Virus record (IMG/VR): IMGVR_UViG_3300017747_002036
Location: 1-54,283 of that record
DNA length: 54,283 bases
Strand: one strand, 5' to 3'
From: a virus
Lineage: Duplodnaviria; Caudoviricetes
The notes under the pieces were generated by a model. The model saw only the letters and a program-made list of their open reading frames with translations. It did not search any database and was not told where the DNA came from. A program made the position numbers and the translations under genes. Numbering within the stretch: position 1 is the stretch's first letter; each line of letters begins with the position of its first letter. This document shows positions 5,298 to 36,192 of this stretch, piece by piece.

Positions 5298-5298
5298 C

Positions 5299-5598
5299 TT
5301 AATCTAGTCCGTGCATCCTCAACGCTGTAATGAACTTACAAAATGGAGAAGAGCAATTCGACCTGTAGGGGTAATTAGGAGGGATTACTTCTTCCTTAAT
5401 GTATTTGATTACTGCATTACATTTAGCAGAGTAATTACGTTCATAAATTATTCTCTCAGTTAACGTAGTTAGTTCTAAGTTGTAAGCTAGTTTAGCTCTA
5501 GCGGCGGCATTCTTGTGAGAAGTTAGCTCGTCTTGTAGATGACGAATTACAGCGTGTGCCTCAGTCAGGGCTTGTTCATTTGCAGTCTCGTTACTCAT
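5299..5598 (-). CDS. Hypothetical coiled-coil protein lying between the two polA halves
   Basis: 99 aa; its start overlaps the upstream stop and its stop is 1 nt from the downstream ATG. Confidence 0.75.
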   Translation of the reverse strand: MSNETANEQALTEAHAVIRHLQDELTSHKNAAARAKLAYNLELTTLTERIIYERNYSAKCNAVIKYIKEEVIPPNYPYRSNCSSPFCKFITALRMHGLD

Positions 5599-8520: not shown

Positions 8521-9351
8521 TTAGCTATTGCTAGCCAAAGTGTTTTGAGTCTTATACTTCTCAAAAATTCTGTAGTTCTGTTCTACGAACATAGGGATAT
8601 CCCGCAACCTACTTCCGCAGTCTGCCGTCCCGTCTGGTTTAGTTTGCCAGAAATAGTCTACTACAGGAGTCTTGCCATCTTTCTCGAAGAGTGGTTTCTT
8701 GTCAGCGTCACGCTGTTGGATAACGTGACAACGGAAGAAGTCAGAGAAGTAGAGTGCTATTTTATTCACGAACTTACCTTGCATCAGCGGCTCTATCTTA
8801 CCCGTAATGTTCTTCTCTTTATCCATCTGAGGTTGTTCGTGGAATGTAACTACTACTTGGCAGTTAAGTTCCTTAAGTGTATTCAGAATCTTCTGAGCGT
8901 AATCTACTTTCCTTGCCCAGAATGCGAACTCATCAATAGAACCTTGCTTAGTATAGACCGGTTCTAAGTCAGTTTGAATGTCGAAGGAATCTTGAAGAGT
9001 AGTCCAACTGTCAAGCACAAGAGTCTGCTCGGCAGAGAATTTAGATGCTTCCTCGCTAAGCCAAACTTGGAGTAAGTCGCGGCGATTTATGACGTTGGCG
9101 TTGATGCCAGTGTTAGCTTTTACTTTCCACTTAGCTTGGTTAGCTAGGCACCATTCTTTCTTATAGAAGGGAACGACTATAATGTCACGACCTAAGTGCC
9201 CAGTTAAGTTGCCATCGAAGTCAGCTACAATAGGATTAGGAAACGTAAGAGCAGAAGTAGTCTTGCCAGTTTTAGTCTTGCCTTGCAATCCTACCATTAG
9301 TTTCTCAGCAGGTGCAGTTTGCAAGTTGATTGCGTAGGGTGGTTTATACAT
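8521..9351 (-). CDS. AAA_24/Sak4-like recombination ATPase
   Basis: Walker A GKTKTGKTT, LVLDSWT, VVVTFHE. Confidence 0.85.
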   Translation of the reverse strand: MYKPPYAINLQTAPAEKLMVGLQGKTKTGKTTSALTFPNPIVADFDGNLTGHLGRDIIVVPFYKKEWCLANQAKWKVKANTGINANVINRRDLLQVWLSEEASKFSAEQTLVLDSWTTLQDSFDIQTDLEPVYTKQGSIDEFAFWARKVDYAQKILNTLKELNCQVVVTFHEQPQMDKEKNITGKIEPLMQGKFVNKIALYFSDFFRCHVIQQRDADKKPLFEKDGKTPVVDYFWQTKPDGTADCGSRLRDIPMFVEQNYRIFEKYKTQNTLASNS

Positions 9352-9402
9352 AGTGTAGTGGAATATGATGCTTGTTGTATCAGGAAAGGTTATTGGACAA
9401 GA

Positions 9403-9417
9403 GCTAGAACTATGCCA
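9403..9417 (-). promoter_or_regulatory. sigma54-type -24/-12 promoter TGGCATAGTTCTAGC
   Basis: GG-N10-GC, intergenic, about 50 nt upstream of the ATG at 9351. Confidence 0.85.
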
Positions 9418-9418
9418 A

Positions 9419-10063
9419 TCAAAGTTTGGTGTAGTCTATATCCTCATAATGTTTAATGTTCTGTCCGAAAGTTAATTTGAAATGACGGATTGATAAGTAG
9501 ATAGTTCCAGCTAGCTGCTTAACATCGCCTGTGTTAAAGAATACTTTATCAGGTGATATGGACTCCAACTCCGTCTCACTACTGTGTGTGTCAGTATTCT
9601 CTTTATCTACATCTGGCCGCCGGATACGCCAAAGGACGCCACCTTGGGAATTTATCCACGCTGCCTGTTTAGGATACCTAACGTCTGTAACAACTACAAT
9701 AGTTGGTTGTGTGTAGTCACCAGATAAAAACTTCTCAGCTAGTTGCCTATCCCAATAGTCTAGGCCAGACTCCAGTAATCTGCGTTGGTAGAATTCTTGC
9801 AATAAGAAACGAAACTCAGAAACATTTTCTTTAAGGTTATCTATCCATTTAATTCTATCTTCATTAGTTTCCATCCCAGCCATACCATCAAAAATCATAT
9901 GTTGTATTAACAAATTGGCCAATTCTAACTTCATTAAGTCTCCGTATGAAAGCCTAACTATCCTCCTATCTACACACATTTCCCTAAGGAGTTTGCATGT
10001 TGTATCTTTGCCTGATTGTTTCTTACCAACTAGGCCGATGATTGTTAATGATTTGTTATTCAT
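9419..10063 (-). CDS. Deoxynucleoside monophosphate kinase
   Basis: GKKQSGKDT P-loop, VTDVRYP, HSSE. Confidence 0.9.
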   Translation of the reverse strand: MNNKSLTIIGLVGKKQSGKDTTCKLLREMCVDRRIVRLSYGDLMKLELANLLIQHMIFDGMAGMETNEDRIKWIDNLKENVSEFRFLLQEFYQRRLLESGLDYWDRQLAEKFLSGDYTQPTIVVVTDVRYPKQAAWINSQGGVLWRIRRPDVDKENTDTHSSETELESISPDKVFFNTGDVKQLAGTIYLSIRHFKLTFGQNIKHYEDIDYTKL

Positions 10064-14762: not shown

Positions 14763-15305
14763 TTAATACCCACCAACAGGTTCAAACTTCTGGTGTGCAA
14801 CAGAAGGTTCAGACCAAGGCGTGTTAAGGATGGCAGAAGCCTTAGCACGAATGTCCTTCTCGCTATACTTCCCGCTGCTAGACAGCATGCTCTTAAACTT
14901 CTTGAAGTTGTCGTCCAGTTCCTTACCTGCGAAGAATGGATTGTAACCTTTCTTCCCAATGTATTCAGCAAGGCGACGCTTACGCTCAGCAACATGCTCA
15001 TCTACCTTAATCAGTAGTTCTGCTAGAGACAGTGAGCTAATGTCAATAGTAGGTTGTGAAGTAGCCTGCTGCACAATAGGTGGCGGCACATCTTCAACAG
15101 GAGTGAGTGATTCACCAGTTAGGACATTCACAACACTAGCTCCTACATTGGCAGAAGTTTGTGAAGCTGCTGCCCGTGCTTCTTCTTGGCGAGCTTGTTC
15201 GTCTACATTTACTACTTTGTTGTTGCCTTCTGTAGAATCTACAGACAGAGGTGAAGTGGCAACAAGTGGTTTAACTACAGGTGGTTTAAGAGATAGAGAG
15301 GACAT
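14763..15305 (-). CDS. Hypothetical protein
   Basis: 180 aa; first gene after a sigma54-type promoter. Confidence 0.8.
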   Translation of the reverse strand: MSSLSLKPPVVKPLVATSPLSVDSTEGNNKVVNVDEQARQEEARAAASQTSANVGASVVNVLTGESLTPVEDVPPPIVQQATSQPTIDISSLSLAELLIKVDEHVAERKRRLAEYIGKKGYNPFFAGKELDDNFKKFKSMLSSSGKYSEKDIRAKASAILNTPWSEPSVAHQKFEPVGGY

Positions 15306-15346
15306 AGTTTATTATGGAGTTACTCGGTTGAGTTTGACAGACTAGA

Positions 15347-15361
15347 GCTAGAAGTGTGCCA
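15347..15361 (-). promoter_or_regulatory. sigma54-type promoter TGGCACACTTCTAGC
   Basis: GG-N10-GC, intergenic, about 40 nt upstream of the ATG at 15305; identical to 21500-21514. Confidence 0.88.
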
Positions 15362-15364
15362 GTG

Positions 15365-15559
15365 TTAATCCATTCTTGATGAATCTTCGATGTCTTGAGC
15401 CAAGTCACTTTCAGTTGAAAGATAACGACAATCGTATTCATCTTCTAACTGATATACGAAATGACCCTTGGCACTAATGTCTTCGTAGATACCTACAATC
15501 TTACCTCGTCCTATAGAGGCTAAGTTGTAACTTGTTCCAATAGCATATTTTGGTTCCAT
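15365..15559 (-). CDS. Small hypothetical protein, possible SH3-like fold
   Basis: 64 aa; KYAIG...GKIVGIY...YQLED. Confidence 0.65.
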   Translation of the reverse strand: MEPKYAIGTSYNLASIGRGKIVGIYEDISAKGHFVYQLEDEYDCRYLSTESDLAQDIEDSSRMD

Positions 15560-15563
15560 AATC

Positions 15564-15788
15564 TTATAGTCCTTCCTCTCTTAGTGAATCTCGTATGTCC
15601 TGCTCCTTACTAGCATCGAACTCATCTGTCTCTTTGTAATGAACCATTGGTTCAGCATTCTCATCTACAACATAACCTTCTCCATTACAATTGTAACACT
15701 GAATGAATTCATGTGCTAAGTTAACTTCACCTCCCTCTCCATTACAAGAGGGACAGAGTATCTTATGATTCATATAGTTAGTTGACAT
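15564..15788 (-). CDS. DnaJ-type zinc-finger protein
   Basis: Two CxxCxGxG motifs: CPSCNGEG and CYNCNGEG. Confidence 0.75.
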   Translation of the reverse strand: MSTNYMNHKILCPSCNGEGGEVNLAHEFIQCYNCNGEGYVVDENAEPMVHYKETDEFDASKEQDIRDSLREEGL

Positions 15789-16073: not shown

Positions 16074-17141
16074 CTAACTAAAATCTAGTTCCCCGAACAT
16101 AGCAAACCTCTTGATGTATGCTTGCAACGCTCTCACATTACCTGACAATTGTGCTTCTGTAAACGTATGGTTCCTTGGAAACTTCCCTGCAAATGGACGT
16201 GTGCTACGTGAAGTGTCAATGTTATCTATGATAAGAGGAACGTCAGCTATACGGTCCCACAAACGCTTAGTCTTAAGTGTAAAGACTGCAACTCGCCAAT
16301 ACAAGTCCTCTCTGAACAATCCCTTAGCACATTCAACAGGTAAGTCTTTGTTGGTTGCTACTATGATACGACAGTTGATTGGTTCACTATCGTTACTACC
16401 TACTCTACGAATAGACTTCTCTTGGATTACACGCAGCAGCTTAGCTTGCATAGACATAGACAATTCGCCGAACTCATCTAGGAATATCGTCCCGTTCGTA
16501 GCTGCTTTGAACAGGCCCACCTTATCTTGTATCGCACCAGTGAATGAACCACGCACATGGCCGAACAGTTCGCTCTCAACTAACGACTCTGGTAAGCCAG
16601 CACAATTGATACTTACCATCTGAGTCATCTTACTACAGGCTAGTGCTCGGGCAATAATCTCTTTGCCAGTTCCAGTAGGTCCAGTGATAAGGACTGGTTC
16701 ATCAAGAGAAGTAAGATGGCGAACTCGTTCCTTCATCTTGATTGTATCTGGGTCAGTAGTGATATAAGTATCTAGAATACTATCAGTCCCTGATTGGATA
16801 GCTGGTTTAAAGGTAGGGTCTATCTTGTATACGTATGCACCTCCGCCGCCTGACATTCCTATCATTGCGTTATTGTTACCCTTAATATAATGTAACTCGC
16901 ATTGGTCTAGAAACTTCTCGGCTGCTTCAATAACACCGAGGTTAGCAAGTGCATTGAACTTAGATTGGTCGGCAGGAAGTAGCTTAGTAAGTCTCTCGAG
17001 AGTAAGCTTAGAAAACTTTGCTTCTATCTCAGGCGATAGCGGAGTAGTATTAAGTTTGCCTGACTCAAACTCAGCACGTAGTTTCTGAGATGGAGTAAGA
17101 GCAGGGAGTGGTTTGTATGGAGTGTTAGGTGATGCTGACAT
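16074..17141 (-). CDS. sigma54-dependent transcriptional activator (bEBP AAA+ domain) lacking HTH and receiver domains
   Basis: Walker A GPTGTGKE, INCA, ESELFGHVRGSFTGA, Walker B IFLDE, QAKLLRVIQE, RIIVATN, FREDLYWR, GNVR; the protein ends 19 aa after GNVR. Confidence 0.96.
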   Translation of the reverse strand: MSASPNTPYKPLPALTPSQKLRAEFESGKLNTTPLSPEIEAKFSKLTLERLTKLLPADQSKFNALANLGVIEAAEKFLDQCELHYIKGNNNAMIGMSGGGGAYVYKIDPTFKPAIQSGTDSILDTYITTDPDTIKMKERVRHLTSLDEPVLITGPTGTGKEIIARALACSKMTQMVSINCAGLPESLVESELFGHVRGSFTGAIQDKVGLFKAATNGTIFLDEFGELSMSMQAKLLRVIQEKSIRRVGSNDSEPINCRIIVATNKDLPVECAKGLFREDLYWRVAVFTLKTKRLWDRIADVPLIIDNIDTSRSTRPFAGKFPRNHTFTEAQLSGNVRALQAYIKRFAMFGELDFS

Positions 17142-17152
17142 AATATAGGAGA

Positions 17153-17446
17153 TTAACAGTTGCCTGCAATTAGTTGGTGGAAGTTGGTTACTTTGTGCGT
17201 AGAAGTGAGTTGCTTATAGCAACAATTGCAATAGAACATCAGCATTTGTGGAGATAGCTGCTGTTTGTATTCTTTACAAGAAGGACAGATATAGAACTCA
17301 GGTTCTTGTTTCTGGATTTCTTTGACTACACCGTTAGCAATAAGCTGAGCTTCGTCTAAGTTAAGACCGGGTGCAGTCCTCAAATGTTTCCACTCTTTAA
17401 GTGGAACCGTTAGAACTACTTTGATGTATTCAGGTTGTGGTGTCAT
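17153..17446 (-). CDS. Zinc-ribbon hypothetical protein
   Basis: CPSC...CNCC. Confidence 0.65.
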   Translation of the reverse strand: MTPQPEYIKVVLTVPLKEWKHLRTAPGLNLDEAQLIANGVVKEIQKQEPEFYICPSCKEYKQQLSPQMLMFYCNCCYKQLTSTHKVTNFHQLIAGNC

Positions 17447-17452
17447 AAATGT

Positions 17453-18679
17453 TTATTCCTCTTCCTCATCTTCTCCCTCCGTCATATCATTCTGCAAGTC
17501 CGCTACGTTATCTGTTCCAACAGACACAGCGTTCTTATCTTCTTCTGATATGAAGTCAGATTCTTTCTTGGCCTCTGTGATTAGCGAGTCCCAAGATTCT
17601 TTAGCTTGAGTTACCTTCCTAAGACAGCGCATCTTTAAGTTAACAATAGCATACACTGCTTCCTCAATAGTCCCACGGTAGAATAGAATAGTCTGTTCTG
17701 TATCCGTAAGAGACGTTAACCTGTGCGCCCTGCCTAGGCCTTGCACTATCTCAATAGCAGAGTAAGTCGGGGCCAAGAATGCCCTACGTTGCCGCGACTT
17801 AACTATCTTGTTGCCCGTCTCCTTGTCTACTTTTGCCCACTCATCAGTGTGATGTAGCGATAGACCTACACCACCAGACTTAAAGGTGAACATCGCTACA
17901 CGTGAGTTGCCAGATTGGAACCTATCAATCTCCTCCTGTCTGGCTACTCTGTTCTGTGGACCGAACTTGTTAAGGATTGCGAAGTCTCTTGCTTCACGTT
18001 CTTCTGGAGTTTCTATTGCTGGGTTACGAAGCTTCTTAAGAACTAAGTCCTGCTGTTCTTTGTTAGCTCCTGCTGCTATCATCTTAGTTAGTATTGATGC
18101 TATCTCATCCTCACTGAACTGGACAGTGTTACTCTTATTCCCAGCCGCTACCATCTCTGTGCTACCTCCCCAGATTAAGGAAATGTCAGACCTCTTGAAC
18201 CCATGCTTCTTAATTAGCCTACTTACAGTCCCGACTATAGTCTGCTTAAACTTAACTGCTAGCACTGCATCTTGGCCGTTCTTCACAGCATTAGCTGCAC
18301 GCTCTGCAAGCACATCACACCTACAAAACTCTGCTGCTTTACAGAACTGTAGCATCTCAACTAGAATCTTGAACTTCCCTTCCGGTGTTGTCTTATCTAC
18401 CTTCGCAGCCTCTAATTGAAATCTTTCCCACGCTTTAGCGTAGTAGTCTCGTGCCCAGTCAGACTGGAAGGAGATTAGTTCTGCGTTGTTTATAGATTTG
18501 AAGTCGGACCTTACATTCTTCACGTCATATACGTAGTCCTTCATTGCGAACATGAACCTCTCAATACCAGCAGGAGAGTGTTCTTTGGGGTCAATGTTAC
18601 CTCCAGAACGGAAGCCATTAGCTAAGTCTTTAGAAAGGTCGCCCCAAGTAGCTTGAGTGATGCGAGTTTTGCTTTTCAT
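17453..18679 (-). CDS. SF2 helicase C-terminal (RecA2) part, strawberry-notch-like
   Basis: IDRFQSG, SGGVGLSLHH, RQRR, YSA..IVQGLGRAHR (motifs V and VI). Confidence 0.85.
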   Translation of the reverse strand: MKSKTRITQATWGDLSKDLANGFRSGGNIDPKEHSPAGIERFMFAMKDYVYDVKNVRSDFKSINNAELISFQSDWARDYYAKAWERFQLEAAKVDKTTPEGKFKILVEMLQFCKAAEFCRCDVLAERAANAVKNGQDAVLAVKFKQTIVGTVSRLIKKHGFKRSDISLIWGGSTEMVAAGNKSNTVQFSEDEIASILTKMIAAGANKEQQDLVLKKLRNPAIETPEEREARDFAILNKFGPQNRVARQEEIDRFQSGNSRVAMFTFKSGGVGLSLHHTDEWAKVDKETGNKIVKSRQRRAFLAPTYSAIEIVQGLGRAHRLTSLTDTEQTILFYRGTIEEAVYAIVNLKMRCLRKVTQAKESWDSLITEAKKESDFISEEDKNAVSVGTDNVADLQNDMTEGEDEEEE

Positions 18680-18690
18680 AATGCTAAGTG

Positions 18691-19917
18691 TTAGTCTCCC
18701 TTATACCCCACCATATCCTCACTTCCAACTTCCGCTCGTGTTGCTAGAGCGAACGTCTTAGCCTCCTCTACAGTAGTGAAGGGCGTAGCTGAAGAGAATA
18801 ATTGCCAAGTGTTGGGTGCTGCCCACTTACTTTCAGGTAGTGGCGTGCAATGGTCTAGTGTCCAGCAAGGATGCTTGTGTAGCAGGGAATCATCTTCCAG
18901 CTTCTTATCAGCTATCCTACTATACGCACGCGCTATCTCAGTCTGTGTAGACCCCGTGTTCTTAAGAGACTGGCATTCATCCCACACTATCACGCAAGGG
19001 TGAATAGTATCTCTCCAAACAGGGAACAGAACTTCCTCACCGTTAACTATCTGTGTGTGCCACTGAATCATTATGTCACCCAGACTTGCGCGAAGTTGGT
19101 CATAGTTAGTTACGAGGACGCCGCCTACATACTTACCTACAGGTAGGCCGAACTTATCCCGGAGGACACGTTCAGTCTGTGTTACGATAGGAGCTTTCGT
19201 GACTACCATGTAAGGGAATAGAGAGTGAACAGGTCCGACGTGGAAGTTAGTATCCCAGAGCCAGCGGAGAAGTTGGCCTATGATATACGTCTTCCCCACT
19301 CCCACTCCTGCGCGAAGAAGCTGGGCTCGTTTGTTATCCCTTACAAAACCTTTAAAGTAATGTGCTGCTGCATCTACTTGGAAGTAACGGAGTTCTGCTT
19401 CTTGCTTGGAGGTATCAAGTGGAGGTATGATTCCTCCATTCTCAAGTAAGTCTTCCTCTGGGACACGAGCATACCAATTGTTGTAACGTCTATGCGCTTT
19501 CTTCTGAGCTTTCTTGTCTATGATTGTAGACTGCACTGGCGCAACTACAGGTAAAGGGGCCGCCTCCTTCTCTACTTCTGGCTGACTCACAGTCTCCTGC
19601 ACGCTAGCAGATAACGCTGTAGTAGGTTGCGACAGGGCTGAGTTAACTACTGAGGCGGCAGATAGAGACTTGATGTAGTTGTTACGGACTAGCTCAACAG
19701 CAGACTTAACTGTTAAAGGAGTAAACTCTTTTTGTATCAGTATGTGCGGAGTAATCTCAGGCTTATCTATAGCTGTTGGAAACTTAGCATCAAACAAGTC
19801 ACATAGTTTACCTGCTACATCTTGCCAAAGAACTAGCTCCTTAAACTGCACTCCCGAAACTAGAGAGTTAATAGCATACTTAAAGAACTTATCCGCTTCT
19901 TTGATGGAGGGGTTCAT
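18691..19917 (-). CDS. SF2 helicase N-terminal (RecA1) part, strawberry-notch-like
   Basis: Q-motif LRYFQ, Walker A AGVGVGKT, TNYDQL, Walker B VWDECQSLKN, motif III SSATP. Confidence 0.85.
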   Translation of the reverse strand: MNPSIKEADKFFKYAINSLVSGVQFKELVLWQDVAGKLCDLFDAKFPTAIDKPEITPHILIQKEFTPLTVKSAVELVRNNYIKSLSAASVVNSALSQPTTALSASVQETVSQPEVEKEAAPLPVVAPVQSTIIDKKAQKKAHRRYNNWYARVPEEDLLENGGIIPPLDTSKQEAELRYFQVDAAAHYFKGFVRDNKRAQLLRAGVGVGKTYIIGQLLRWLWDTNFHVGPVHSLFPYMVVTKAPIVTQTERVLRDKFGLPVGKYVGGVLVTNYDQLRASLGDIMIQWHTQIVNGEEVLFPVWRDTIHPCVIVWDECQSLKNTGSTQTEIARAYSRIADKKLEDDSLLHKHPCWTLDHCTPLPESKWAAPNTWQLFSSATPFTTVEEAKTFALATRAEVGSEDMVGYKGD

Positions 19918-21459: not shown

Positions 21460-21499
21460 AGTGATGCAATGAAATGCGTGTTAAATTGTAACGGATGAA

Positions 21500-21514
21500 G
21501 CTAGAAGTGTGCCA
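21500..21514 (-). promoter_or_regulatory. sigma54-type promoter TGGCACACTTCTAGC (heads the operon containing the helicase and bEBP genes)
   Basis: GG-N10-GC, about 40 nt upstream of the ATG at 21459. Confidence 0.88.
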
Positions 21515-21587
21515 AGAGTGGCTGAAGTTAGACTACTACGTGTTAAGTTAGTAAGCTAACTTCAACAACTGGACTACTTGTAAACAA

Positions 21588-21642
21588 ATAATCCCCAGTT
21601 ACTCACTACGTAATGCACAACGTAGCTTTCGCTGGGGATTAT
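21588..21642 (-). terminator. Rho-independent terminator-like hairpin
   Basis: ataatccccag...ctggggattat with an inner ctacg/cgtag stem, followed by a U-rich run on the minus strand. Confidence 0.7.
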
Positions 21643-21669: not shown

Positions 21670-22152
21670 TTACGCCGCAACAGTTTCATCTTCCTCTGCA
21701 GTCTTGCGAGGCGCACGCTTACGCAGTTCCATGAGTTCACGCAGCTCACCAAGGCGAGATTGAATCTCAACCATACGCGGCATCTGAGCAGGGTCAGAGA
21801 AGTTAATCTTGGTGAACTCAATCACCAAAGCATCTTCCTCATCCTTCAACTCAGACAGAGAAGCAGAAGTAGTCTTCGCGTTGAGGACAAACTTCGTGAA
21901 CTTATCTACGTCAGGGTTGCCTTGTGAATCACACGATTCATTGTAGGCGTTGATGAAGAGTTGGCGGAGAGCAGCGTTAATCTTGTTGATAACGAAATCA
22001 TTACCGAAGAATTCAGTAATGAGTCCGAAGTTATTCTCATCAACAGACAAGCCAAGGAACTTCTTGCCCTTAGCGGAGCCCTTCGTAATCTCCTGCGTGC
22101 TAACGTCGATTTCAACTTTGCGTCCGTCTGCGAGTTCTTTTGCGATTTTCAT
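21670..22152 (-). CDS. Hypothetical protein in its own transcription unit
   Basis: 160 aa, flanked by its own sigma54-type promoter and terminator. Confidence 0.85.
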   Translation of the reverse strand: MKIAKELADGRKVEIDVSTQEITKGSAKGKKFLGLSVDENNFGLITEFFGNDFVINKINAALRQLFINAYNESCDSQGNPDVDKFTKFVLNAKTTSASLSELKDEEDALVIEFTKINFSDPAQMPRMVEIQSRLGELRELMELRKRAPRKTAEEDETVAA

Positions 22153-22282: not shown

Positions 22283-22285
22283 TAA

Positions 22286-22300
22286 GCTAGTTGTATGCCA
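22286..22300 (-). promoter_or_regulatory. sigma54-type promoter TGGCATACAACTAGC
   Basis: GG-N10-GC, intergenic, oriented toward 22152. Confidence 0.85.
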
Positions 22301-23783: not shown

Positions 23784-24347
23784 TTAATTCTTAGTTAAGG
23801 TTAGTTTAACTTGCGGGACGACATATTTGCTATCTTGCGTCCATTCTGGTTGAGGAGTTCTTTTGCGCCAAGTTGCAAATCGTGGTATCTTCTCACCAAT
23901 GTAATACCTTCTGTAAGCTGTTACGTAGTCAGAGTGTTTGTAACGAGATGGCATACATTGAGGAGGAGTTGTGATATCTATTGAATCATTAGGATTGTAG
24001 AAGGTAGAATCTTCTAATAGTCCTATTGCATGACAAGCAATATCTAAAGATTTATGTATCTTACCATATCTAGCTTTATACTGTTGTCCCATTTCGTAAA
24101 CATGAATCCACAACCACGAATAGTTAGCAGGAGATTCACGCAACCAAATAGAGCAAGGATGATTCTTGTGCGTTGACTTGTATAAACCTAACTCGTTACA
24201 TTTCTCATCTCCAACCTTATCACGTGCTAGAGTAGAAAGCAATTGTGCGCTCTCAAGTAGCATTTTAACTACGTGTTGGTCACATAGGTATGTTGCTGCT
24301 AGACGGGGATTATTGTCTAAGAAGAAAATATTTATAGAGTTACCCAT
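23784..24347 (-). CDS. Pyrimidine-dimer DNA glycosylase/endonuclease V-like protein
   Basis: NIFFLD...CDQHVVKMLLESAQLLST, THKNHPC, RYGKIHKS, PPQCMP, VTAYRRYY. Confidence 0.85.
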   Translation of the reverse strand: MGNSINIFFLDNNPRLAATYLCDQHVVKMLLESAQLLSTLARDKVGDEKCNELGLYKSTHKNHPCSIWLRESPANYSWLWIHVYEMGQQYKARYGKIHKSLDIACHAIGLLEDSTFYNPNDSIDITTPPQCMPSRYKHSDYVTAYRRYYIGEKIPRFATWRKRTPQPEWTQDSKYVVPQVKLTLTKN

Positions 24348-24910
24348 CCTTTCCGTTTTAATGTTGCGTCAACTAAACGTTCCACCATCTTAATTTCTTC
24401 GTCTGTTAAAGGTTTTAACAAAACATTTTCAAAGTAAGTGCCTTTAGGCTTAACTCTTGAAAGGGCATAGTTATATGAATAAGCTGCTTGATGAATTGAA
24501 TAACAAACAGGCAACACTGTCTTCTTATAATTTACACAGATATCTGCTTTCCATTTCTGGCTAGTTGCATTCCATGTAACACCTTTATAAGGACAGTCAA
24601 TTACTCTATGTTTGCGCTTTGCAGCTAAAGCAACATTTTGTTGTTGCGAAGTGGCTTGTAAATTACACTTACAATTATTGAGTCTGTCTCCATCTATATG
24701 ATGAACTGCGCCATATTCAGCATTAAGAATAAATCTATGCAACAGCACACTACCGTTATGCTTTCCTGCATTTAACTTTTTGTATAAATCGAAACTGTGA
24801 GCATAACCTTGCTGATGTATATACCACGAGTAAGCTGAAACTCGCTCGAAATCTTCATCATCAATTAATGCTACACAGTTTGTTTGGCCTAATAGTTTTA
24901 TTTCTTTCAT
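24332..24910 (-). CDS. HNH-AP2 homing endonuclease
   Basis: ALIDDEDF, LHRFIL..VHHIDGDRLNNCKCNL, YKGVTW...AAYSYN. Confidence 0.9.
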   Translation of the reverse strand: MKEIKLLGQTNCVALIDDEDFERVSAYSWYIHQQGYAHSFDLYKKLNAGKHNGSVLLHRFILNAEYGAVHHIDGDRLNNCKCNLQATSQQQNVALAAKRKHRVIDCPYKGVTWNATSQKWKADICVNYKKTVLPVCYSIHQAAYSYNYALSRVKPKGTYFENVLLKPLTDEEIKMVERLVDATLKRKGWVTL

Positions 24911-24934
24911 TATGAATCCTTTTTATCTTACAGA

Positions 24935-24949
24935 GCAGGATTCATGCCA
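24935..24949 (-). promoter_or_regulatory. sigma54-type promoter TGGCATGAATCCTGC
   Basis: GG-N10-GC, 25 nt upstream of the ATG at 24910. Confidence 0.8.
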
Positions 24950-25946: not shown

Positions 25947-26432
25947 ACAGGACTCTTAGTGTATAAGCAGCCACATGTTCACACTTCAAAAGTAAAGTAA
26001 ACAATAACTTCATTTGTGTTTAGGTTATGTTATGGGGCACAAAATCGCCAAATTGCTGCATAAAGCATTAGCGTTTAATACCTCACTTTATGATACATAC
26101 AACAGAGATTCATACTGTAATTTTCCCTGTTTGTCTGGCTTTGTTAATGTTTACTTAAAGTAAAGCCTAGTTAGTGCTTATGGTAGCATACCTCAGCACG
26201 CTACTTTGTTGTCACCACTAGCTAGGTTGTCTTATCCTATTGGGATTTATTAGGTTACAGTGGCGGCTATTTAACAATTCGCAAATAGCAAACCGCAACC
26301 AGCAACTAACTAATTAAATCTTTGAACGCGTAGGATAAGTTGGAAACTTAGTTATACTCTCACATTGTCCAATAAAGGAGTCTCATGCTACGTTGTCATA
26401 GCATGATGTTATTGCGCTTGGTTACGCAATTA

Positions 26433-26447
26433 GCAAGAAGCGTGCCG
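26433..26447 (-). promoter_or_regulatory. sigma54-type promoter CGGCACGCTTCTTGC
   Basis: Near-consensus GGCACG-N4-TTGC in a non-coding region. Confidence 0.75.
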
Positions 26448-26744
26448 TTGTAATTTTCATACAGAGTCCAATAGAGTATACGCATCTCTACCGCAACCTT
26501 TTCGCATACAGTCTTCCAACTTGGGAATGTTAGTCTGTAGCTAGTAAGCTAGGCGCTTAAAGCTGTCTCAATGTTTTCACTTACATGCACTCACGGCATT
26601 CAGTTACTTCCACGTCTATATTTCGGTAACGCTACTAAGTAAGCTGTGGTTAACAGCGCAAAGGGTTTACTTATTCCGATTCGATGCTTTATTACTTAGC
26701 TGGCGGCTTATTGCATTCCGCCTATTACAAGCTAGTTACTGACT

Positions 26745-26777
26745 ACTGGGCAGTAGATATTTAACTTACTGCCCAGT
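26745..26777 (-). terminator. Hairpin after the 26785 stop
   Basis: actgggcagta...tactgcccagt, 11-bp stem. Confidence 0.7.
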
Positions 26778-26784
26778 GTGTCAA

Positions 26785-27342: not shown

Positions 27343-27396
27343 ATAGTTACACTTTCTGCGTTACCACCTAGTTAGGTAGTTTGTTTGGGTTTGACT

Positions 27397-27411
27397 TGGC
27401 ACCTAGTTAGC
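27397..27411 (+). promoter_or_regulatory. Possible antisense sigma54-type promoter TGGCACCTAGTTAGC
   Basis: GG-N10-GC, intergenic, but opposite to the local gene direction. Confidence 0.45.
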
Positions 27412-27506
27412 ACTCACGGCTTACTAGTCTACCAAGTATCAATGAGTCTTTATTGATCCATTGACTGTTAGGCACGATACTAGACCGTGCCTAAAGTGTC
27501 AAGGGA

Positions 27507-27695
27507 CTAATTGAAAGAAAATGTCCGCTTATCCCAATTATATACGCCAGCAGGATTCTTGCCAAACTTGTGGGCAATCCATTTAAAAACGAATTCATGC
27601 GGCCAATTTTCAGGAAACACAACGCAAGTAGGTTCTTCCACTGGCATACCTTGCAAGTTAGCAAGCTCATTAGCGTTAGACGGTTTAAGAATCAT
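27507..27695 (-). CDS. Small hypothetical protein, first gene of the minus arm
   Basis: 62 aa, directly behind a sigma54-type promoter. Confidence 0.65.
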   Translation of the reverse strand: MILKPSNANELANLQGMPVEEPTCVVFPENWPHEFVFKWIAHKFGKNPAGVYNWDKRTFSFN

Positions 27696-27710
27696 AGCAA
27701 GAGATTGTTA

Positions 27711-27725
27711 GCACTCCCTATGCCA
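27711..27725 (-). promoter_or_regulatory. sigma54-type promoter TGGCATAGGGAGTGC
   Basis: GG-N10-GC, 16 nt upstream of the ATG at 27695. Confidence 0.72.
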
Positions 27726-27729
27726 TACG

Positions 27730-28446: not shown

Positions 28447-28461
28447 TGGTATACTTCTTGC
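28447..28461 (+). promoter_or_regulatory. sigma54-type promoter TGGTATACTTCTTGC heading the virion arm
   Basis: GG-N10-GC with a TTGC -12 box, upstream of the terminase genes. Confidence 0.8.
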
Positions 28462-28476
28462 TCTGTAGGAGAGTAT

Positions 28477-28654: not shown

Positions 28655-29110
28655 ATGACCTCCCTAGAACAACAAGTTATCTCTGCCTACGATGAGTGCG
28701 ACCTCTCCGTAGAAGAAATTCTTGCTGAGTTCGAGGGCCTAGAAAGGGAGTCAGTTCTAGTTACGCTACAGAAGTTCTCTAGCAAATATAAAGATGGAGT
28801 TAAGTCTGGTGAAGAGAAGAATGTTCTAACAGACAGTGAGATGGATGCACTTAAGGCAGTGCTAATGAATTTAGCTCTTGACGGAGAATGTGAGGCTGTT
28901 AAGTTCTCAGCTGCTAAATTCATGTTTAACGAAGGGAAAGGACGTAACAACCCTCAGAAGAACATTGGCCGCTCGCTAACTGTAAACATCTTACAACTTA
29001 ATGAACAGTTGAAAGCGGGTCAGTCTAGGTATCAGCAAGCACGTGAGCGTAAACTAACTTCGCAGCCAGCCCAAAACCCCTCGTCCGCCCTTACTACTGT
29101 TGATGTATGA
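28655..29110 (+). CDS. Putative terminase small subunit
   Basis: ATGA overlap with the large terminase; helical LMNLAL..ECEAVKFSAAKFM segment. Confidence 0.6.
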   Translation: MTSLEQQVISAYDECDLSVEEILAEFEGLERESVLVTLQKFSSKYKDGVKSGEEKNVLTDSEMDALKAVLMNLALDGECEAVKFSAAKFMFNEGKGRNNPQKNIGRSLTVNILQLNEQLKAGQSRYQQARERKLTSQPAQNPSSALTTVDV

Positions 29111-31062
29111 CAGAAGCTGAAGAAGTAGCCGCCTTAGCTCGTCAACTAGCCGAGAAGAAATCTTCTGGTAGACTACCTCGTAACCCTGTAGTAGAGTCTG
29201 TGGCGGCTAACTCCCCTGTTGCTGGTTGCGATTTGCGGGTTGCGGATTGCGATTCGGATACTTCTACTGCAGACCAATCTACAAATAGCAAAGGGCCCTC
29301 ACCTAAGCCAAAGGAGGGCGCGAAAGAGTATACAGAAGAGGACTTTGCTAAGCTACTAGCACCGCAAACTCAGCCGGACAAGTATAAACTAGTGGAGTTC
29401 CGTGACCCAGCTGAGCTACTTTACATTGTAGACCCTAACTTTCGAGATGGCAGACGTGACCTCTATGGTTGGCAGATGGAAACTCACGACTTATTCGTGA
29501 AGTGGAAGTATACTGAGCATGACCCACTTAAGTTCTACCTTCGTGCAGCTAACGGTTCAGGTAAAGATGCTTACGTAATCGCTCCTTTTGCTGTGTGGTT
29601 CGCCTTGTGTAAGGTTAGGTCGCGGGTAATCATCACATCTTCCTCTTACCAACAGCTAGAAACGCAAACGGAGTCCTACATTAGAACACTTTGTGCTCAA
29701 GTAAACGAGTATTTCCAAGAAGAAGTCTTCTACATAAGGAAACTTCACATCATTTGTAAGTGGACAGGAAGTGAAATCAAATTATTCTCTACAGATGACC
29801 CCGGCCGTGCAGAAGGTTATCATCCATTTCCAGATTATGCAGGGGCAGAGATGGCAATTGTAGTAAACGAAGCTAAGACTGTCCCTGATTGTATATTTGA
29901 AGCTCTAAAACGATGCACAGGATACAACTATTGGCTAGAAGTTAGCTCACCTGGACAAACATCTGGACATTTCTACAACGTAGTTACGAATGCGGTAGAT
30001 TATGTAGCCGGCACTACAACTTTCACAGGCGCGTCACTTACTAGGAAAGTCACAGCATATGAATGTGACCACTTCTCTAAGCAATCTATTGACCGTGAAG
30101 GAGAAGAAGTAGGCAGAGAGTCATCTTGGTTCCGTTCTTCTAAACTTGCTGAGTTTACTACGCAAGATGAGAGTGTAGTTATCAGTCGTGAACTGATTGA
30201 GAAAGTTCTACGACAGAATACTAGGCACATGCGAGTAAAAGGAGAAGTTAATAACAAGAAGTGTGGCACAGACTTAGGATTCTCTAAAGATGAAACAGTG
30301 TCTTGGGTAATAGATGGTAATAAACTACTGGACTCCTTCGAGATGGTGCAGAACGATACAACTGTTCAAGTAGATCGGTTATGTATGTTCTATGAGAAGC
30401 ATAATCTTAAGGGTGACGAGATAGCTGTAGATGACTCTAATTTCGGCCACTCTGTAAATGACATGTTAGGTCTGCGCGGGTATCAAGTTCGCCGCGTTAC
30501 AAACCAAAGCAGAGCATACTCTAGCAAAATCTACGGTAACAGAGGCGCTGAGATGTGGTTCAATTTTAAGCGTCTGTTGGAGTTAGGACTTGTTTGCGGA
30601 TTGGATAGAGTTAAGCACAAGATACTTATCGAGCAACTCTGTAACAGGTATTACAAGCAGACTGAATCTAACGGGAAGATATACTTAGAGAGTAAGAAAG
30701 AAGCTCGCGCTAATGGACATGGTAGTCCTGACCGTGCAGATGCTTTAGTTCTAGCGTTCTCTTTCTACAACGTAAATGATTTCCTAGAAGAAGCAGAGAG
30801 CGTAGAGGAGACTACGCTGCGGCAGAAGTCAAAAGGAAAGTTAGCAGCTGACTTTGCACGTGACTACGAAGAGAGAGTAACTTACAAGGGCCTTCATAGC
30901 TCCGGCACAGAAGCTGCTTCTTCTGATGAATCAAGTTGGAAACTAGCTACTACGTTTCAAGGTAGGATTCCTTCTGTTGTTGGATTCATTAGGAAGAGAA
31001 TCGGTAATAAGGATTCAGCAAGTCCAACTAAACCTTACAGTTTCAAAACGTCTTTAGATTAA
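29107..31062 (+). CDS. terL: Terminase large subunit
   Basis: WQ adenine-binding motif, Walker A RAANGSGKD, Walker B IVVNEA, coupling motif SSPG, nuclease GTDLG..DETV and SPDRADAL. Confidence 0.92.
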   Translation: MTEAEEVAALARQLAEKKSSGRLPRNPVVESVAANSPVAGCDLRVADCDSDTSTADQSTNSKGPSPKPKEGAKEYTEEDFAKLLAPQTQPDKYKLVEFRDPAELLYIVDPNFRDGRRDLYGWQMETHDLFVKWKYTEHDPLKFYLRAANGSGKDAYVIAPFAVWFALCKVRSRVIITSSSYQQLETQTESYIRTLCAQVNEYFQEEVFYIRKLHIICKWTGSEIKLFSTDDPGRAEGYHPFPDYAGAEMAIVVNEAKTVPDCIFEALKRCTGYNYWLEVSSPGQTSGHFYNVVTNAVDYVAGTTTFTGASLTRKVTAYECDHFSKQSIDREGEEVGRESSWFRSSKLAEFTTQDESVVISRELIEKVLRQNTRHMRVKGEVNNKKCGTDLGFSKDETVSWVIDGNKLLDSFEMVQNDTTVQVDRLCMFYEKHNLKGDEIAVDDSNFGHSVNDMLGLRGYQVRRVTNQSRAYSSKIYGNRGAEMWFNFKRLLELGLVCGLDRVKHKILIEQLCNRYYKQTESNGKIYLESKKEARANGHGSPDRADALVLAFSFYNVNDFLEEAESVEETTLRQKSKGKLAADFARDYEERVTYKGLHSSGTEAASSDESSWKLATTFQGRIPSVVGFIRKRIGNKDSASPTKPYSFKTSLD

Positions 31063-33369: not shown

Positions 33370-34590
33370 ATGGACCCAGAAGAAATTGATAAAGAGCCTG
33401 TAATTGAAACTCCCTCTGCCGGAGATTCTGCACCTGTTGCAGATAACACTCCTGCACCAGTTAGTAACGACAATCCATCTGTTGAAGATGTGATGGCAGA
33501 ATTTACTTCTGCTGGTTTAGCTCCGTCTATTGGCGAAACCAAGAAGCCACTTCCGCCGCCAGTTACTGTGCCTGCGCCAGGAACTAAGCCAACTCCTAAG
33601 CCAGTTGCTAAGGTTGAAGAACCAAAAGAGGAAGAGAAGAAGGAAGCTGCACCCGAAGGTGTAGAAGGGTTGTTCAAGAAGATGGGAGAGCTTGCGAAAG
33701 AGCCTGCTCCAGCCAAGGAAACGCCCAACGTAAGTAAAGGAGGGAAGCCAACACATAGAGATTACGCTAAAGACTTGCCTACTGAATTGCATGCTGTAGC
33801 AAAGGAGATGTCTAATCCTGCATATACTGAGTTCGTTAAGTATGTGCAAGAGAATAAGGCTCTTAAAGCCGATAAGACAATCAAGTCTGAGAACGGTTTG
33901 CCTGTATCTTACTTAGAACATCCCGACTCTTACATTCTATCTCCTGACTTCAATCAAGCAACGCAAGTTATTAGGCAAGCAGACAGTGTGTTAGCTCACT
34001 GGGAAGTGCAGAAGAGGAAGATTGCAGAAGGCGAAGATTGGCAAGACTTGGACGTAGATGAGAATGGGAAGATAGTCTTAGGTCGTGTGCATCCAGCTAG
34101 CGAAGAAGCTAAGTTCAAGATTGGGCAATACATTCAACATGTTTCTAGTAAGAAACAGGAAGCTCAGAGATTCGCTGGAGAAATCAAGCAGACATTCGTT
34201 GCTCGCACTCAACAGACAACTAAGTGGTTAAGGGAGCAGGAAGATATTCACATGCCTATGTTTAAAGATGAGAAGTCTCCTCTCTGGGCAGATGCAAATG
34301 AAGTCTACAAGCAACTTCCTCCTGAGTTGCGGCATTCTCCTCTGTCGTCCACTCTTGCCAAGACAGTAGCCGTCAACAGGGCTTCTATTGGCTACAATAA
34401 GATGCTGATGCAGCAAGTGGATGAACTCAAGAGTAGGCTTGCGAAATACGAAAAAGTAGAACGTCCGGCGGGTAACAATGGAGTTGTGAAGGCGTCTGCT
34501 ACAAGTGGAGGTAGGTCAACAGTTAAGCCGGGAGATGTTCCAGTAGAGAATGTTTTGGAAGAGTTTGCAGCTGCGGGATTTAAGTTGTAA
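33370..34590 (+). CDS. Scaffolding protein (putative)
   Basis: P/E/K-rich disordered N-terminus plus coiled coils; lies before the capsid gene. Confidence 0.65.
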   Translation: MDPEEIDKEPVIETPSAGDSAPVADNTPAPVSNDNPSVEDVMAEFTSAGLAPSIGETKKPLPPPVTVPAPGTKPTPKPVAKVEEPKEEEKKEAAPEGVEGLFKKMGELAKEPAPAKETPNVSKGGKPTHRDYAKDLPTELHAVAKEMSNPAYTEFVKYVQENKALKADKTIKSENGLPVSYLEHPDSYILSPDFNQATQVIRQADSVLAHWEVQKRKIAEGEDWQDLDVDENGKIVLGRVHPASEEAKFKIGQYIQHVSSKKQEAQRFAGEIKQTFVARTQQTTKWLREQEDIHMPMFKDEKSPLWADANEVYKQLPPELRHSPLSSTLAKTVAVNRASIGYNKMLMQQVDELKSRLAKYEKVERPAGNNGVVKASATSGGRSTVKPGDVPVENVLEEFAAAGFKL

Positions 34591-34637: not shown

Positions 34638-34652
34638 TGGCACGCTTTCTGC
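34638..34652 (+). promoter_or_regulatory. sigma54-type promoter TGGCACGCTTTCTGC for the major capsid gene
   Basis: Near-consensus TGGCACG-N4-YTGC, intergenic. Confidence 0.9.
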
Positions 34653-34663
34653 TTTATACTGAT

Positions 34664-34914: not shown

Positions 34915-36192
34915 ATGGCAGCAATTCCAGCAATCGACGCTAATATTTGCTCTGGATGGACAGAGCAGAATATTAACTTGTTCAACAAACTCGACTTCTA
35001 TCTCGCCGCTCTTCAAGCTAAGAAGCGTAAGACGTGGATGGGGTGGAGTAAGTTCTGTGGTAAGGTTAAGTGGCAAGCCAACATGGGCGCAACCATGAAG
35101 GGTGTTCGCAAAGAACCTTCTCCTAACTTGCGGCAGTTCGCATTTCCTACAGTGTTGAGTGGTATCCCTAAGAAAGATATCATTGACATTCGAGAAATGA
35201 CTGTTACTACTCAAGTTTCTCGTCATCGTTTCGAGTCTCCAGTTCTTAACTTCTTGCCTGACTTCCAAGACTTCATGACTAATCATGTGTCTGCTCTTGG
35301 TGAAGACATTGAAGAGAAGAAGCTCCGCTACGAAGATATTTTCATTCGTGGTAACATCTTCCACAACTCTCCTAATGTGTGGATTCCTAATCGTGCAGCT
35401 GGCGAAATGGTAATCGCACCTATGGGTGATGGTAACCAAGCTGGAACTAGCGGTAAGACTACTGCTTGGTTGTCTGCTATCTTGCCTGAGATTGGTCAGC
35501 CGGGATACTTGGGTCTGCAATCTATTAACAAGTTGGTTACTGCACTTGAAGTTGACCTTCGTGTTCCTGCATTCAAGGGTTCTGGCCAACCTACAGATGA
35601 TGTTGGATTGAACGATATGTATTGTCTCGTTCTGTCTGCGGAAGCGTGGAATCAATTCACGTTTGACCCGTGGGTATTGGCTAACAAGAAACTCGACTTC
35701 GATGTTGTGAACCAATCTTTCCGTGGTTCTCTGTTCGGTCGTGTTACTTGCAAGCTGGAAGATATGCCGCTTCGTATTGCTGCGGATGGCACGTTCCCAG
35801 CTCCTGAGATTCGTGTTAGTGGTGGTGATGCTTACAACGAAGGTGAATCTGTTGTTAATCCTGACTATCAAGATGCGCAATATGAAGTTGCGTTCTTGAT
35901 TGGCACGGAAGGTTACAAGTCACTGGAAGTTGGGCCGCCTCCTACGGCATTCACGAACGGTGGTTACAATGACAAGTTCCGTAAGATGACTTGGAATGGT
36001 GAACTCATGCTCACTAAGGACTTCCTTATTGAGTGCGTGGATGATGACGGTAATGTTCGCTACGAGCAGAACTCTTATGGTGAATACCTCAAGTTCCAAT
36101 CTCAGTTGGCGCTTGGTATCATTGGTCAACAGAAACGTAATATCGTTCCTATCATCTTTAAGCGGACCCGCGGTGCTGTGGTTCCTGCTTAA
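34915..36192 (+). CDS. Major capsid protein (putative)
   Basis: 425 aa after the scaffold gene, with a dedicated promoter; position and size typical of HK97-fold capsid proteins. Confidence 0.8.
   Translation: MAAIPAIDANICSGWTEQNINLFNKLDFYLAALQAKKRKTWMGWSKFCGKVKWQANMGATMKGVRKEPSPNLRQFAFPTVLSGIPKKDIIDIREMTVTTQVSRHRFESPVLNFLPDFQDFMTNHVSALGEDIEEKKLRYEDIFIRGNIFHNSPNVWIPNRAAGEMVIAPMGDGNQAGTSGKTTAWLSAILPEIGQPGYLGLQSINKLVTALEVDLRVPAFKGSGQPTDDVGLNDMYCLVLSAEAWNQFTFDPWVLANKKLDFDVVNQSFRGSLFGRVTCKLEDMPLRIAADGTFPAPEIRVSGGDAYNEGESVVNPDYQDAQYEVAFLIGTEGYKSLEVGPPPTAFTNGGYNDKFRKMTWNGELMLTKDFLIECVDDDGNVRYEQNSYGEYLKFQSQLALGIIGQQKRNIVPIIFKRTRGAVVPA

Follow-up and report, generated by a model that had tools for sequence, protein, structure and literature searches.

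What can a phage do with a sigma-54 activator that has neither a domain for binding DNA nor one for sensing a signal? The question is raised by a gene at positions 16074..17141 (minus strand) of the IMG/VR virus record IMGVR_UViG_3300017747_002036, a complete Caudoviricetes genome of 54,283 nucleotides (nt) with 54,160 bp of unique sequence and a 123-bp terminal repeat, which was analysed over its whole length and is called the window below. The gene encodes a protein of 355 residues, which is assigned to the bacterial enhancer-binding proteins (bEBPs) by its open reading frame (ORF), its match to the Sigma54_activat family (PF00158) and its bEBP-like predicted structure, and which carries neither a helix-turn-helix (HTH) nor a recognisable sensor domain. 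Sigma-54-type promoter sites are enriched both in the window and around the genes of its viral relatives, and the protein is likely to be a natural activator made of a AAA+ domain only, switching on the phage sigma-54 promoters from solution at a time set by its own synthesis.

Residues 118-355 (16077..16790, minus strand) make up the AAA+ core and its lid, as delimited by an alignment of 21 homologues, by alignments with NifA and FleQ and by the predicted structure. All the core motifs listed in a first-pass annotation of the sequence were found in the protein, namely Walker A (G154PTGTGKE161), E189SELFGH followed by VR and by the L1 loop (G198SFTGA203), Walker B (F220LDE223), the R-finger region (F276REDLYWR283) and sensor II (G334NVR337). 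The L1 loop aligns with the GAFTGA of NifA and FleQ, and Walker A, Walker B, the R-fingers, sensor II and the L1 residues F200, T201, G202 and A203 are invariant across the 21 aligned homologues. A Pfam scan matched PF00158 at residues 128-289 with an expectation value (E) of 9.4e-57 and 191.8 bits against a cut-off of 20.2, covering positions 3-167 of the 168 in the profile; the same family scored 194.1 bits in a six-frame search of the whole record, and the remaining Pfam matches of the protein, a second sigma-54 model and generic AAA families, fell on the same stretch. Among PHROGs the protein falls in phrog_7998 (E 4.7e-40), whose function is unknown. Matches to NCBIfam models, among them those for NorR, RtcR, NifA, PspF and FlgR, and to the PADLOC models for RtcR began only at about residue 124, and every NCBIfam match lay far under its cut-off.

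An AlphaFold model built with the 21 homologues gave a mean predicted local distance difference test score (pLDDT) of 78.8, with values of 80-93 in the AAA+ part from residue 118. The structure prediction proposed in the first-pass annotation thus returned, for the protein alone, the fold of solved bEBP central domains: Foldseek matches in the PDB were bEBP central domains throughout (E 1e-18 to 2e-23, target template modelling (TM) score about 0.78), headed by FleQ (6jdi, E 1.8e-23, target TM 0.78, 235 columns) and followed by NtrC4, FlrC, NtrC1, ZraR and PspF, each over about 235 columns, i.e. the core alone. A phmmer search of the PDB sequences returned NifA (E 1.2e-47) and FleQ (E 3e-47), and the core is 36-49% identical to cellular bEBP cores. 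By motifs, profile and predicted fold, the protein is a true GAFTGA-type sigma-54 activator.

The C-terminal side ends shortly after this core. The tail past GNVR is 18 residues long (R337 to S355), one fewer than the 19 given at first, a trivial miscount. In the Pfam scan that matched Sigma54_activat, no match to HTH_8 (PF02954), REC, GAF or PAS was obtained at E <= 1, and HTH_8 was also absent at E <= 10 from the six frames of the 54,283-bp record, while 14 out of 14 control genomes were positive in this search. No frameshifted HTH, which could have overturned the initial proposal, therefore lies downstream of the gene, and the absence of a Fis-type HTH stands. Residues 1-125 scanned alone matched 0 Pfam families at E <= 10, in agreement with the early observation that the N-terminus shows no receiver, GAF or PAS pattern. 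Compared with the classical regulatory, central and DNA-binding (R-C-D) layout of NtrC, NifA and NorR, the protein thus has neither the C-terminal HTH nor an N-terminal regulatory domain of the REC, GAF, PAS, V4R or CARF type.

What precedes the core, residues 1-117 (16791..17141, minus strand), belongs to no Pfam family. When this region was searched with phmmer against 1.84 billion representative proteins, the sole real match was P0003, a protein of its own clade (E 2.5e-23); two giant low-complexity proteins were also returned and were discarded, being matched through a glycine-rich stretch only. In the model of the whole protein, residues 17-86 are helical with moderate confidence and residues of about 83-115 form a glycine-rich disordered linker. 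A model of the N-terminus only (pLDDT 61) gave 0 Foldseek matches in the PDB at E <= 0.001, and the ESM Atlas returned nothing usable for the region. Across the family, the number of residues ahead of Walker A ranges from about 45 to 137, and these extensions are unalignable between clades. On these comparisons the N-terminal region is an orphan with a homologue only in its own small clade. The early suggestion that it provides specificity or timing is weakened accordingly, as the region is not conserved in the family and could play such a part only for that small clade.

The lack of an HTH is not peculiar to this protein. A homology search returned four full-length relatives (P0001-P0004, 61-93% identity), then many proteins of 243-325 residues consisting of a sigma-54 interaction domain only, many of them on contigs of 48-57 kb, and then receiver-plus-AAA+ proteins of 387 residues from Flavobacteriaceae. 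A profile scan of IMG/VR found a relative encoded in 227 of 292 candidate stretches, and the best 80 loci (1.22 Mb, 28-63% G+C) were analysed, yielding 79 complete viral homologues after one truncated ORF was dropped. Their length is 243-336 residues in 73 cases, and in 70 the tail extends at most 25 residues past the last N[VI]R motif; one has a tail of 38 residues, six have tails of 86-99 residues, the size of an HTH, and in two the motif is missing. The sequence G[AS]FTGA occurs in 50 of the 79.

A quick maximum-likelihood tree (LG+G4, root not known) was built from 233 columns of the core. In it, the 73 short viral proteins and five proteins of the window's clade fell on one side of a branch with a Shimodaira-Hasegawa-like approximate likelihood-ratio test (SH-aLRT) value of 100, against 48 cellular-type rows. 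The latter comprised 37 proteins from bacterial genome contigs, five cellular database proteins, five long proteins from viral contigs and one protein of 342 residues with an HTH-sized tail. The tree covered the 37 of 43 genome loci with complete ORFs and 9 of 120 listed database proteins, and its cellular rows were picked by similarity to the window's protein. Gene order is shared as well: a homologue of the C-terminal half of a helicase was found in 60 of the 80 loci and of its N-terminal half in 49, always upstream and on the same strand, while an exonuclease homologue was found in 64, always downstream of the activator. Judged from these proteins, the HTH-less architecture is a family trait of the phage lineage.

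An activator of this kind needs promoters to act on, and the existence of phage sigma-54 promoters had at first simply been assumed. We searched for them with a strict -24/-12 pattern, TGGCAY-N5-YHGCW, and obtained 9 matches in the window, where shuffled sequences gave 0.5. Control patterns with spacers of 2-4 or 6-9 nt gave 0-2 matches in the window, and a pattern with its halves swapped gave one. Six of the nine sites lie directly upstream of co-oriented genes (9402, 15346, 21499, 22285 and 24934 on the minus strand, 34638 on the plus strand), whereas of the other three, 27397 (plus strand) is in a non-coding divergent region and 35787 and 44854 are inside genes.

The same signal was obtained across the lineage. 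The 80 loci contain 123 strict sites against 10.2 in shuffles, with 7-18 matches for spacers of 2-4 or 6-9 nt and 15 for swapped halves. As partitioned by a crude ORF caller, 37 of the sites fall in coding sequence, 69 fall between genes and point the same way as a gene no more than 350 nt away, and 17 occupy other intergenic positions, so that 70% are intergenic compared with 7.9% of the sequence. Per 100 kb, there are 16.6 sites in the window and 10.1 in the family, against 5.7 around cellular bEBP genes and 2.1 in lambda. Five related whole genomes carry 5-8 strict sites each and none of the pattern written backwards. Positions left free by the pattern are also biased among the 104 unique sites, with G (60%) or A (31%) after TGGCAY, T (54%) before TGG, C (61%) at the last spacer position and A or T after GCW. 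These base preferences match the sigma-54 consensus.

The arrangement of the sites is conserved too. Among the 123 strict sites, 111 are co-oriented with the activator gene. In the 78 loci with at least 300 nt downstream of that gene, a strict site lies within 200 nt past the activator stop codon in 43, mostly 20-45 nt past it, and within 1500 nt in 54; with a relaxed pattern the latter figure rises to 65. A strict site also lies about 120-180 nt before the homologue of the right-arm gene 34915..36192 (41-46% identity) in two of the related genomes, G001 and G005, as in the window, and in G001, G004 and G005 strict sites head the block that starts with the homologues of 28655..29110 and 29107..31062. 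The features expected of a sigma-54 regulon, that is GG at -24 and GC at -12 with exact spacing upstream of target genes, are thus present, and the promoters are real as sequence features in the window and across the lineage, as shown by their enrichment and placement. Much of the gene expression in this phage lineage is probably driven through the alternative sigma factor of its host.

Within the window, the strict site TGGCACACTTCTAGCT at 15346..15361 (minus strand) sits between two ORFs, 3 nt behind the stop codon of 15365..15559 and 41 nt ahead of 14763..15305. Going downstream from the activator gene, it is the first site to be met, at 713 nt and after three small ORFs, and is the analogue of the family site close behind the activator stop codon. 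The same sequence, TGGCACACTTCTAGCT, recurs at 21499..21514 (minus strand), where it heads the gene block from 21459 down to 15365 that contains the split helicase and the activator gene itself. Just upstream of this site, two strong hairpins (21517..21642, minus strand) were predicted with an RNA folding energy of -50.3 kcal/mol and a z-score of -4.39, 0 of 200 shuffles being as stable; the first of them (21588-21642) is followed by a U-rich run and is terminator-like. Further strict sites on the minus strand are TGGCATACAACTAGCT at 22285..22300, upstream of ORF 21670..22152, TGGCATGAATCCTGCT at 24934..24949, 24 nt upstream of ORF 24332..24910, and TGGCATAGTTCTAGCT at 9402..9417, between the genes for a deoxynucleoside monophosphate (dNMP) kinase (9419..10063) and a Sak4-like protein (8521..9351). 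The last heads the block of DNA polymerase, primase and ligase genes, and it was labelled as coding by the crude gene caller only because of a short plus-strand shadow ORF. On the plus strand, TGGCACGCTTTCTGCT at 34638..34653 is 262 nt upstream of the conserved right-arm gene 34915..36192.

Two relaxed matches are possible sites. TGGTATACTTCTTGCT at 28447..28462 (plus strand) stands at the head of the right arm and is uncertain because it is only 16 nt before an ATG; CGGCACGCTTCTTGCT at 26432..26447 (minus strand) is in a long non-coding stretch and is uncertain because it has no clear downstream gene. A further candidate at 27549-27564 (TGGCAA...) was rejected, since it overlaps a sigma-70-like promoter (TTGGCA-17-TATAAT) that agrees with the consensus at 11 of 12 positions. 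The -12 element reads TAGCT at 9402, 15346, 21499 and 22285, with an unusual A where the consensus has T, and CTGCT at 24934 and 34638, while TTGCT dominates in related phages; such variants could mark promoter classes of different strength or timing.

The divergent non-coding region contains elements of another type. The near-consensus sigma-70-type promoter TTGGCA-17-TATAAT runs from 27565 to 27537 (minus strand), and a second one, TTGACA-17-TATCGT, from 27502 to 27474 (minus strand), overlapping the palindrome AGGCACG-N9-CGTGCCT. A motif containing TGGCGTAT is present in three copies near 27540, 27720 and 27995 in the same region (27474-28006). These elements are candidate early promoters and a candidate operator.

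Since classical bEBPs act from upstream enhancers, the sequences preceding the promoters were inspected. In the 250 nt upstream of nine window sites, no 6-10-mer is more widely shared than in random windows. TTAGCTTACTA was considered as a shared upstream motif and discarded, as it is not enriched (38 matches against 32.8 expected). For the window and the 80 loci together, a median of 33.5 nt separates the -24 element from the end of the gene before it, and this gap is at most 60 nt for 53 of 74 sites, so that there is rarely any dedicated non-coding DNA at the usual enhancer location. The short gaps and the lack of a shared motif are consistent with activation from solution, and are no proof of it.

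A precedent for such activation is DctD250, an engineered AAA+-only fragment consisting of residues 141-390 of DctD, which is reported to activate, with no enhancer, a pair of unrelated sigma-54 promoters of Salmonella (by 150- and 16-fold) and to switch on 16 of 20 predicted sigma-54 operons (PMC3844500). By analogy with this fragment, the phage protein would be enhancer-independent and perhaps constitutively active, as the first-pass annotation had proposed, and the breadth of DctD250 supports the further idea that the sigma-54 regulon of the host may fire too.

These elements suggest the following course of events. Host sigma-54 holoenzyme would sit on the phage -24/-12 sites in closed complexes. 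The activator, once made, would assemble the usual ring driven by its putative ATPase activity, and the ring would contact sigma-54 through the GSFTGA loop and open the closed complexes without binding DNA. Without a domain to hold it on DNA, it would work from solution at each of these promoters, with no need for enhancers; having no recognisable sensor domain, its activity would depend mainly on the timing and amount of its synthesis. The activator is the last long gene of the helicase-containing block, and sigma-54 promoters head the next replication blocks and the virion arm, an arrangement in which its synthesis would be the switch from the first to the later phases of infection. Its first molecules could come from read-through from the sigma-70-like promoters near 27.5 kb, from an unrecognised promoter or through the action of a host activator, and auto-activation from the site at 21499 would then make a positive loop.

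Several points weigh against this reading. The block that contains the activator gene is itself headed by the sigma-54 site at 21499 behind the terminator-like hairpins, and the first activator molecules need another source. In the 80 loci, no strict site was found within 3 kb upstream of the activator gene, and 47 of them have no upstream strict site at all in the sequence covered. Variants of L1 outside G-x-F-[TS]-G-A, such as GSYSGA, occur in 25 of the 79 homologues, and some of the strict sites in coding sequence may be due to chance. The presence of sigma-54 in the host is an assumption: in the viral, metagenome and genome collections scanned with the activator, nothing exceeded about 58% identity, nothing covered the N-terminus and no prophage was found. 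DctD250 acting from solution is reported to be about 10-fold weaker than enhancer-bound NtrC (PMC3844500). Finally, the low-confidence model of the N-terminal region leaves room for a fold that may bind DNA or protein and is cryptic at that confidence.

The last point leads to a different explanation, in which the protein is enhancer-dependent and its helical N-terminal segment (residues 17-86) is a new type of DNA-binding domain for sites near the phage promoters. Besides the predicted helices, one weak ESM Atlas row, a cluster of Cro/C1-type HTH proteins with TM scores of 0.39/0.28, under the useful level, goes in this direction. We regard this explanation as quite improbable, because the region matched neither a Pfam family nor a PDB structure at the thresholds given above, because most of the family keeps the promoters yet has no such region, or an unrelated one, and because no k-mer is shared upstream of the sites. 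The same lack of a shared upstream element bears on the possibility that the protein is a co-activator similar to FleT, inactive alone and forming mixed rings with a DNA-binding bEBP of the host, which it would redirect or shift in its promoter preference. FleT is a natural bEBP without a DNA-binding domain that is reported to give no activation alone and to work in FleQ/FleT hetero-oligomers (PMC11999139), thus speaking at once for this possibility and against an autonomous phage activator, and the core identity to cellular bEBPs makes mixed rings conceivable. Yet no common element on which a host partner could bind was found, most promoters have at most 60 nt of non-coding DNA upstream, the phage proteins group in a single deep clade to the exclusion of the cellular proteins sampled, and the range in G+C of the lineage suggests many hosts while the same minimal protein is kept. 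A co-activator role is therefore unlikely in our view.

Two further explanations would remove either the activating function or the sigma factor. Phages are reported to encode inhibitors of host transcription, such as P7 and Ocr, and the protein might likewise be a decoy, a possibility already named in the first-pass annotation, that binds sigma-54 or host bEBPs unproductively and shuts down the host sigma-54 regulon. A decoy would have no need of the Walker A, Walker B, R-finger and sensor II residues that are invariant in the 21 homologues, and the enriched and well-placed sigma-54 promoters of the phages need an activator, which makes a decoy very unlikely. Alternatively, the -24/-12-like sites might be read by another, unrecognised phage factor remodelled by the AAA+ protein. 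Most right-arm proteins are unannotated, and ORF 33370..34590 (plus strand) has a weak PHROG match to 'sigma factor' phrog_5767 (E 7.2e-4); the same ORF has no Pfam match, and the two large right-arm genes that flank it point to a scaffold-like protein rather than to a sigma factor. As the sites fit the sigma-54 consensus even at positions free in the pattern, and as GAFTGA-type activators are known only as sigma-54 partners according to a review (PMC7175178), we give this explanation hardly any weight. A natural activator acting from solution on phage sigma-54 promoters is thus the reading that we retain.

The genome in which the activator is found is organised in two arms. The minus-strand arm (1221-27342) carries the replication set recognised by PHROG matches, with genes for an ATP-dependent ligase, a primase/helicase, a DNA polymerase A in two pieces, an exonuclease, the Sak4-like protein, the dNMP kinase and a split SNF2-type helicase. 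The latter, a conserved operon neighbour that immediately precedes the activator gene, consists of two ORFs of 408 residues (17453..19917, minus strand), both with PHROG helicase matches. For the family-A DNA polymerase, the pieces have 564 and 348 residues, with an ORF of 99 residues between them (4251-7285, minus strand). The plus-strand arm, from about 28.5 kb, contains poorly annotated virion genes, including one for a protein with a tail-fibre domain; since sequence searches of PHROGs, Pfam and the PDB gave no identity for the right-arm proteins, 34915..36192 was not called a capsid gene. Once the terminal repeat is removed, an ORF of 2240 residues spans the ends of the record (48506-54283 into 1-1068). 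Its residues 514-634 match an ART-PolyVal ADP-ribosyltransferase domain (PF18760, E 3.5e-25). The product is possibly a polyvalent protein that is injected and could then modify proteins of the host, RNA polymerase for example.

As for other transcription components, Sigma54_DBD and Sigma54_CBD were not found in the window at E <= 10, i.e. there is no phage RpoN, and Sigma54_DBD was not found in the five related whole genomes. A T7-type RNA polymerase (PF00940) was unmatched in the window, as it was in every control genome. No tRNA and no Rfam family was detected in the window.

Close to the activator, the ORF of 74 residues between its gene and the next sigma-54 site (15564-15788, minus strand) shows a CxxC...CxxC zinc-ribbon pattern and a match to DnaJ_CXXCXGXG under the cut-off (E 5.9e-5), and the ORF of 97 residues just upstream (17153..17446) contains cysteines in pairs; the 80 related loci hold no homologue of either ORF. 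Convincingly long ORFs are missing from two stretches of about 0.8 and 1.1 kb (25950-26780 and 27343-28440), which is unusual in a compact phage, and a strong terminator-like hairpin runs from 25640 to 25611 (minus strand).

The DNA polymerase (5591-7285) and the most conserved right-arm protein (34915-36192) had no tblastn match in 50,697 GenBank phage records, yet the module is shared by dozens of IMG/VR contigs of 47-56 kb. No DNA match to GenBank phages was obtained around the activator gene, and the 65 GenBank records that match the activator protein do so with at most 49% identity over the core, many of them being bacterial contigs filed as phage. The lineage appears to have no cultured or deposited representative in the GenBank phage collection. 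A Shine-Dalgarno-like motif was found within 20 nt ahead of the start codon in only 10 of 54 genes, which hints at a host with weak Shine-Dalgarno usage, e.g. among Bacteroidota; the Bacteroidota-type -33/-7 promoter pattern was not enriched in the window. The nearest cellular cores are from Flavobacteriaceae, other Bacteroidota and Acidobacteriota, which, like the Shine-Dalgarno count, is at most a hint of the host.

In the absence of an activator sigma-54 promoters are silent, and in its presence they are tightly on, properties that are ideal for a switch. What is more surprising in these results than the protein itself is the lineage-wide sigma-54 programme. We lean slightly towards the view that a widespread lineage of uncultured phages of about 50 kb (at least 227 IMG/VR stretches, with the G+C range given above) uses host sigma-54 as the main transcription route after the first minutes, with the minimal activator, encoded at the end of an early helicase block and right ahead of its first target promoter, as the only timer. 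This expression strategy would be distinct from the appropriation of sigma-70, from phage sigma factors and from phage RNA polymerases. With it, rpoN would become a host factor that the phage cannot do without, so that loss of rpoN is predicted to protect hosts against the lineage, and the entire sigma-54 regulon of the host would be fired as a side effect. If confirmed, it would represent a new way to schedule phage gene expression with the host polymerase, would define the smallest natural working sigma-54 activator and would provide compact orthogonal activator/promoter pairs for synthetic biology. The system also offers a direct test of whether activation from solution is sufficient in a natural setting.

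To our knowledge, an enhancer-free activator made of the AAA+ domain only has until now been a laboratory construct, DctD250 being an example. Here it is a natural and conserved phage gene found together with its target promoters. A literature search conducted mostly outside subscription journals and without supplements yielded no description of a GAFTGA-type activator encoded by a phage together with phage sigma-54 promoters. DctD250 and other engineered fragments such as PspF 1-275 share with the phage protein the central domain only, with no regulatory or DNA-binding domain, and are described as constitutive, promiscuous and active from solution without enhancers (PMC3844500). The size of DctD250, 250 residues, falls in the range of the 73 short phage homologues. 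The differences are that DctD250 is a laboratory truncation, whereas the phage family is natural, conserved and accompanied by cognate promoters in the same genomes, and that the window's protein has, unlike DctD250, an orphan extension of about 117 residues.

Among natural proteins, the first-pass annotation had pointed to FlgR of Helicobacter and CtcC of Chlamydia. The comparison is apt, since FlgR (Helicobacter, Campylobacter) and CtcC are both listed in group 5 of the bEBPs, with a response-regulator domain and AAA+ but no D domain (PMC7175178), and are, like the phage protein, natural GAFTGA-type activators without a C-terminal HTH. However, they keep a receiver domain and are controlled by phosphorylation; the phage protein has no receiver and is not a group 5 member, and the NCBIfam FlgR model matched its AAA+ part only, with 137.8 bits against a cut-off of 750. 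PspF and HrpR/HrpS, in group 4, resemble it in having no cis regulatory domain, their activity being set by expression or by a trans partner (PMC7175178), but they keep the C-terminal HTH and bind enhancers, whereas the phage protein has no HTH; the NCBIfam PspF models matched its core only, with 165 bits against a cut-off of 443.55. FleT of Cereibacter (Rhodobacter) sphaeroides is, like the phage protein, a small bEBP without a DNA-binding domain, but it is cellular and is reported to work only in mixed complexes with FleQ (PMC11999139).

The closest phage-encoded case is Htm (Gp204) of an E. coli phage, a AAA+ protein with a structural likeness to RtcR, PspF and NtrC reported in a preprint (10.64898/2026.10.06.757011). 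Like the protein described here it has no C-terminal HTH, and it has an unrelated N-terminal domain of its own of about 80 residues. According to its authors, Htm has no GAFTGA loop, whereas the present protein has GSFTGA, a PF00158 match far over the cut-off and sigma-54 promoters in the phage genome. Five bEBP architectures are distinguished in the review cited above, none of them lacking both the R and the D domain (PMC7175178). Judged by its domain make-up, the phage family would add to these a natural class of bEBPs with neither.

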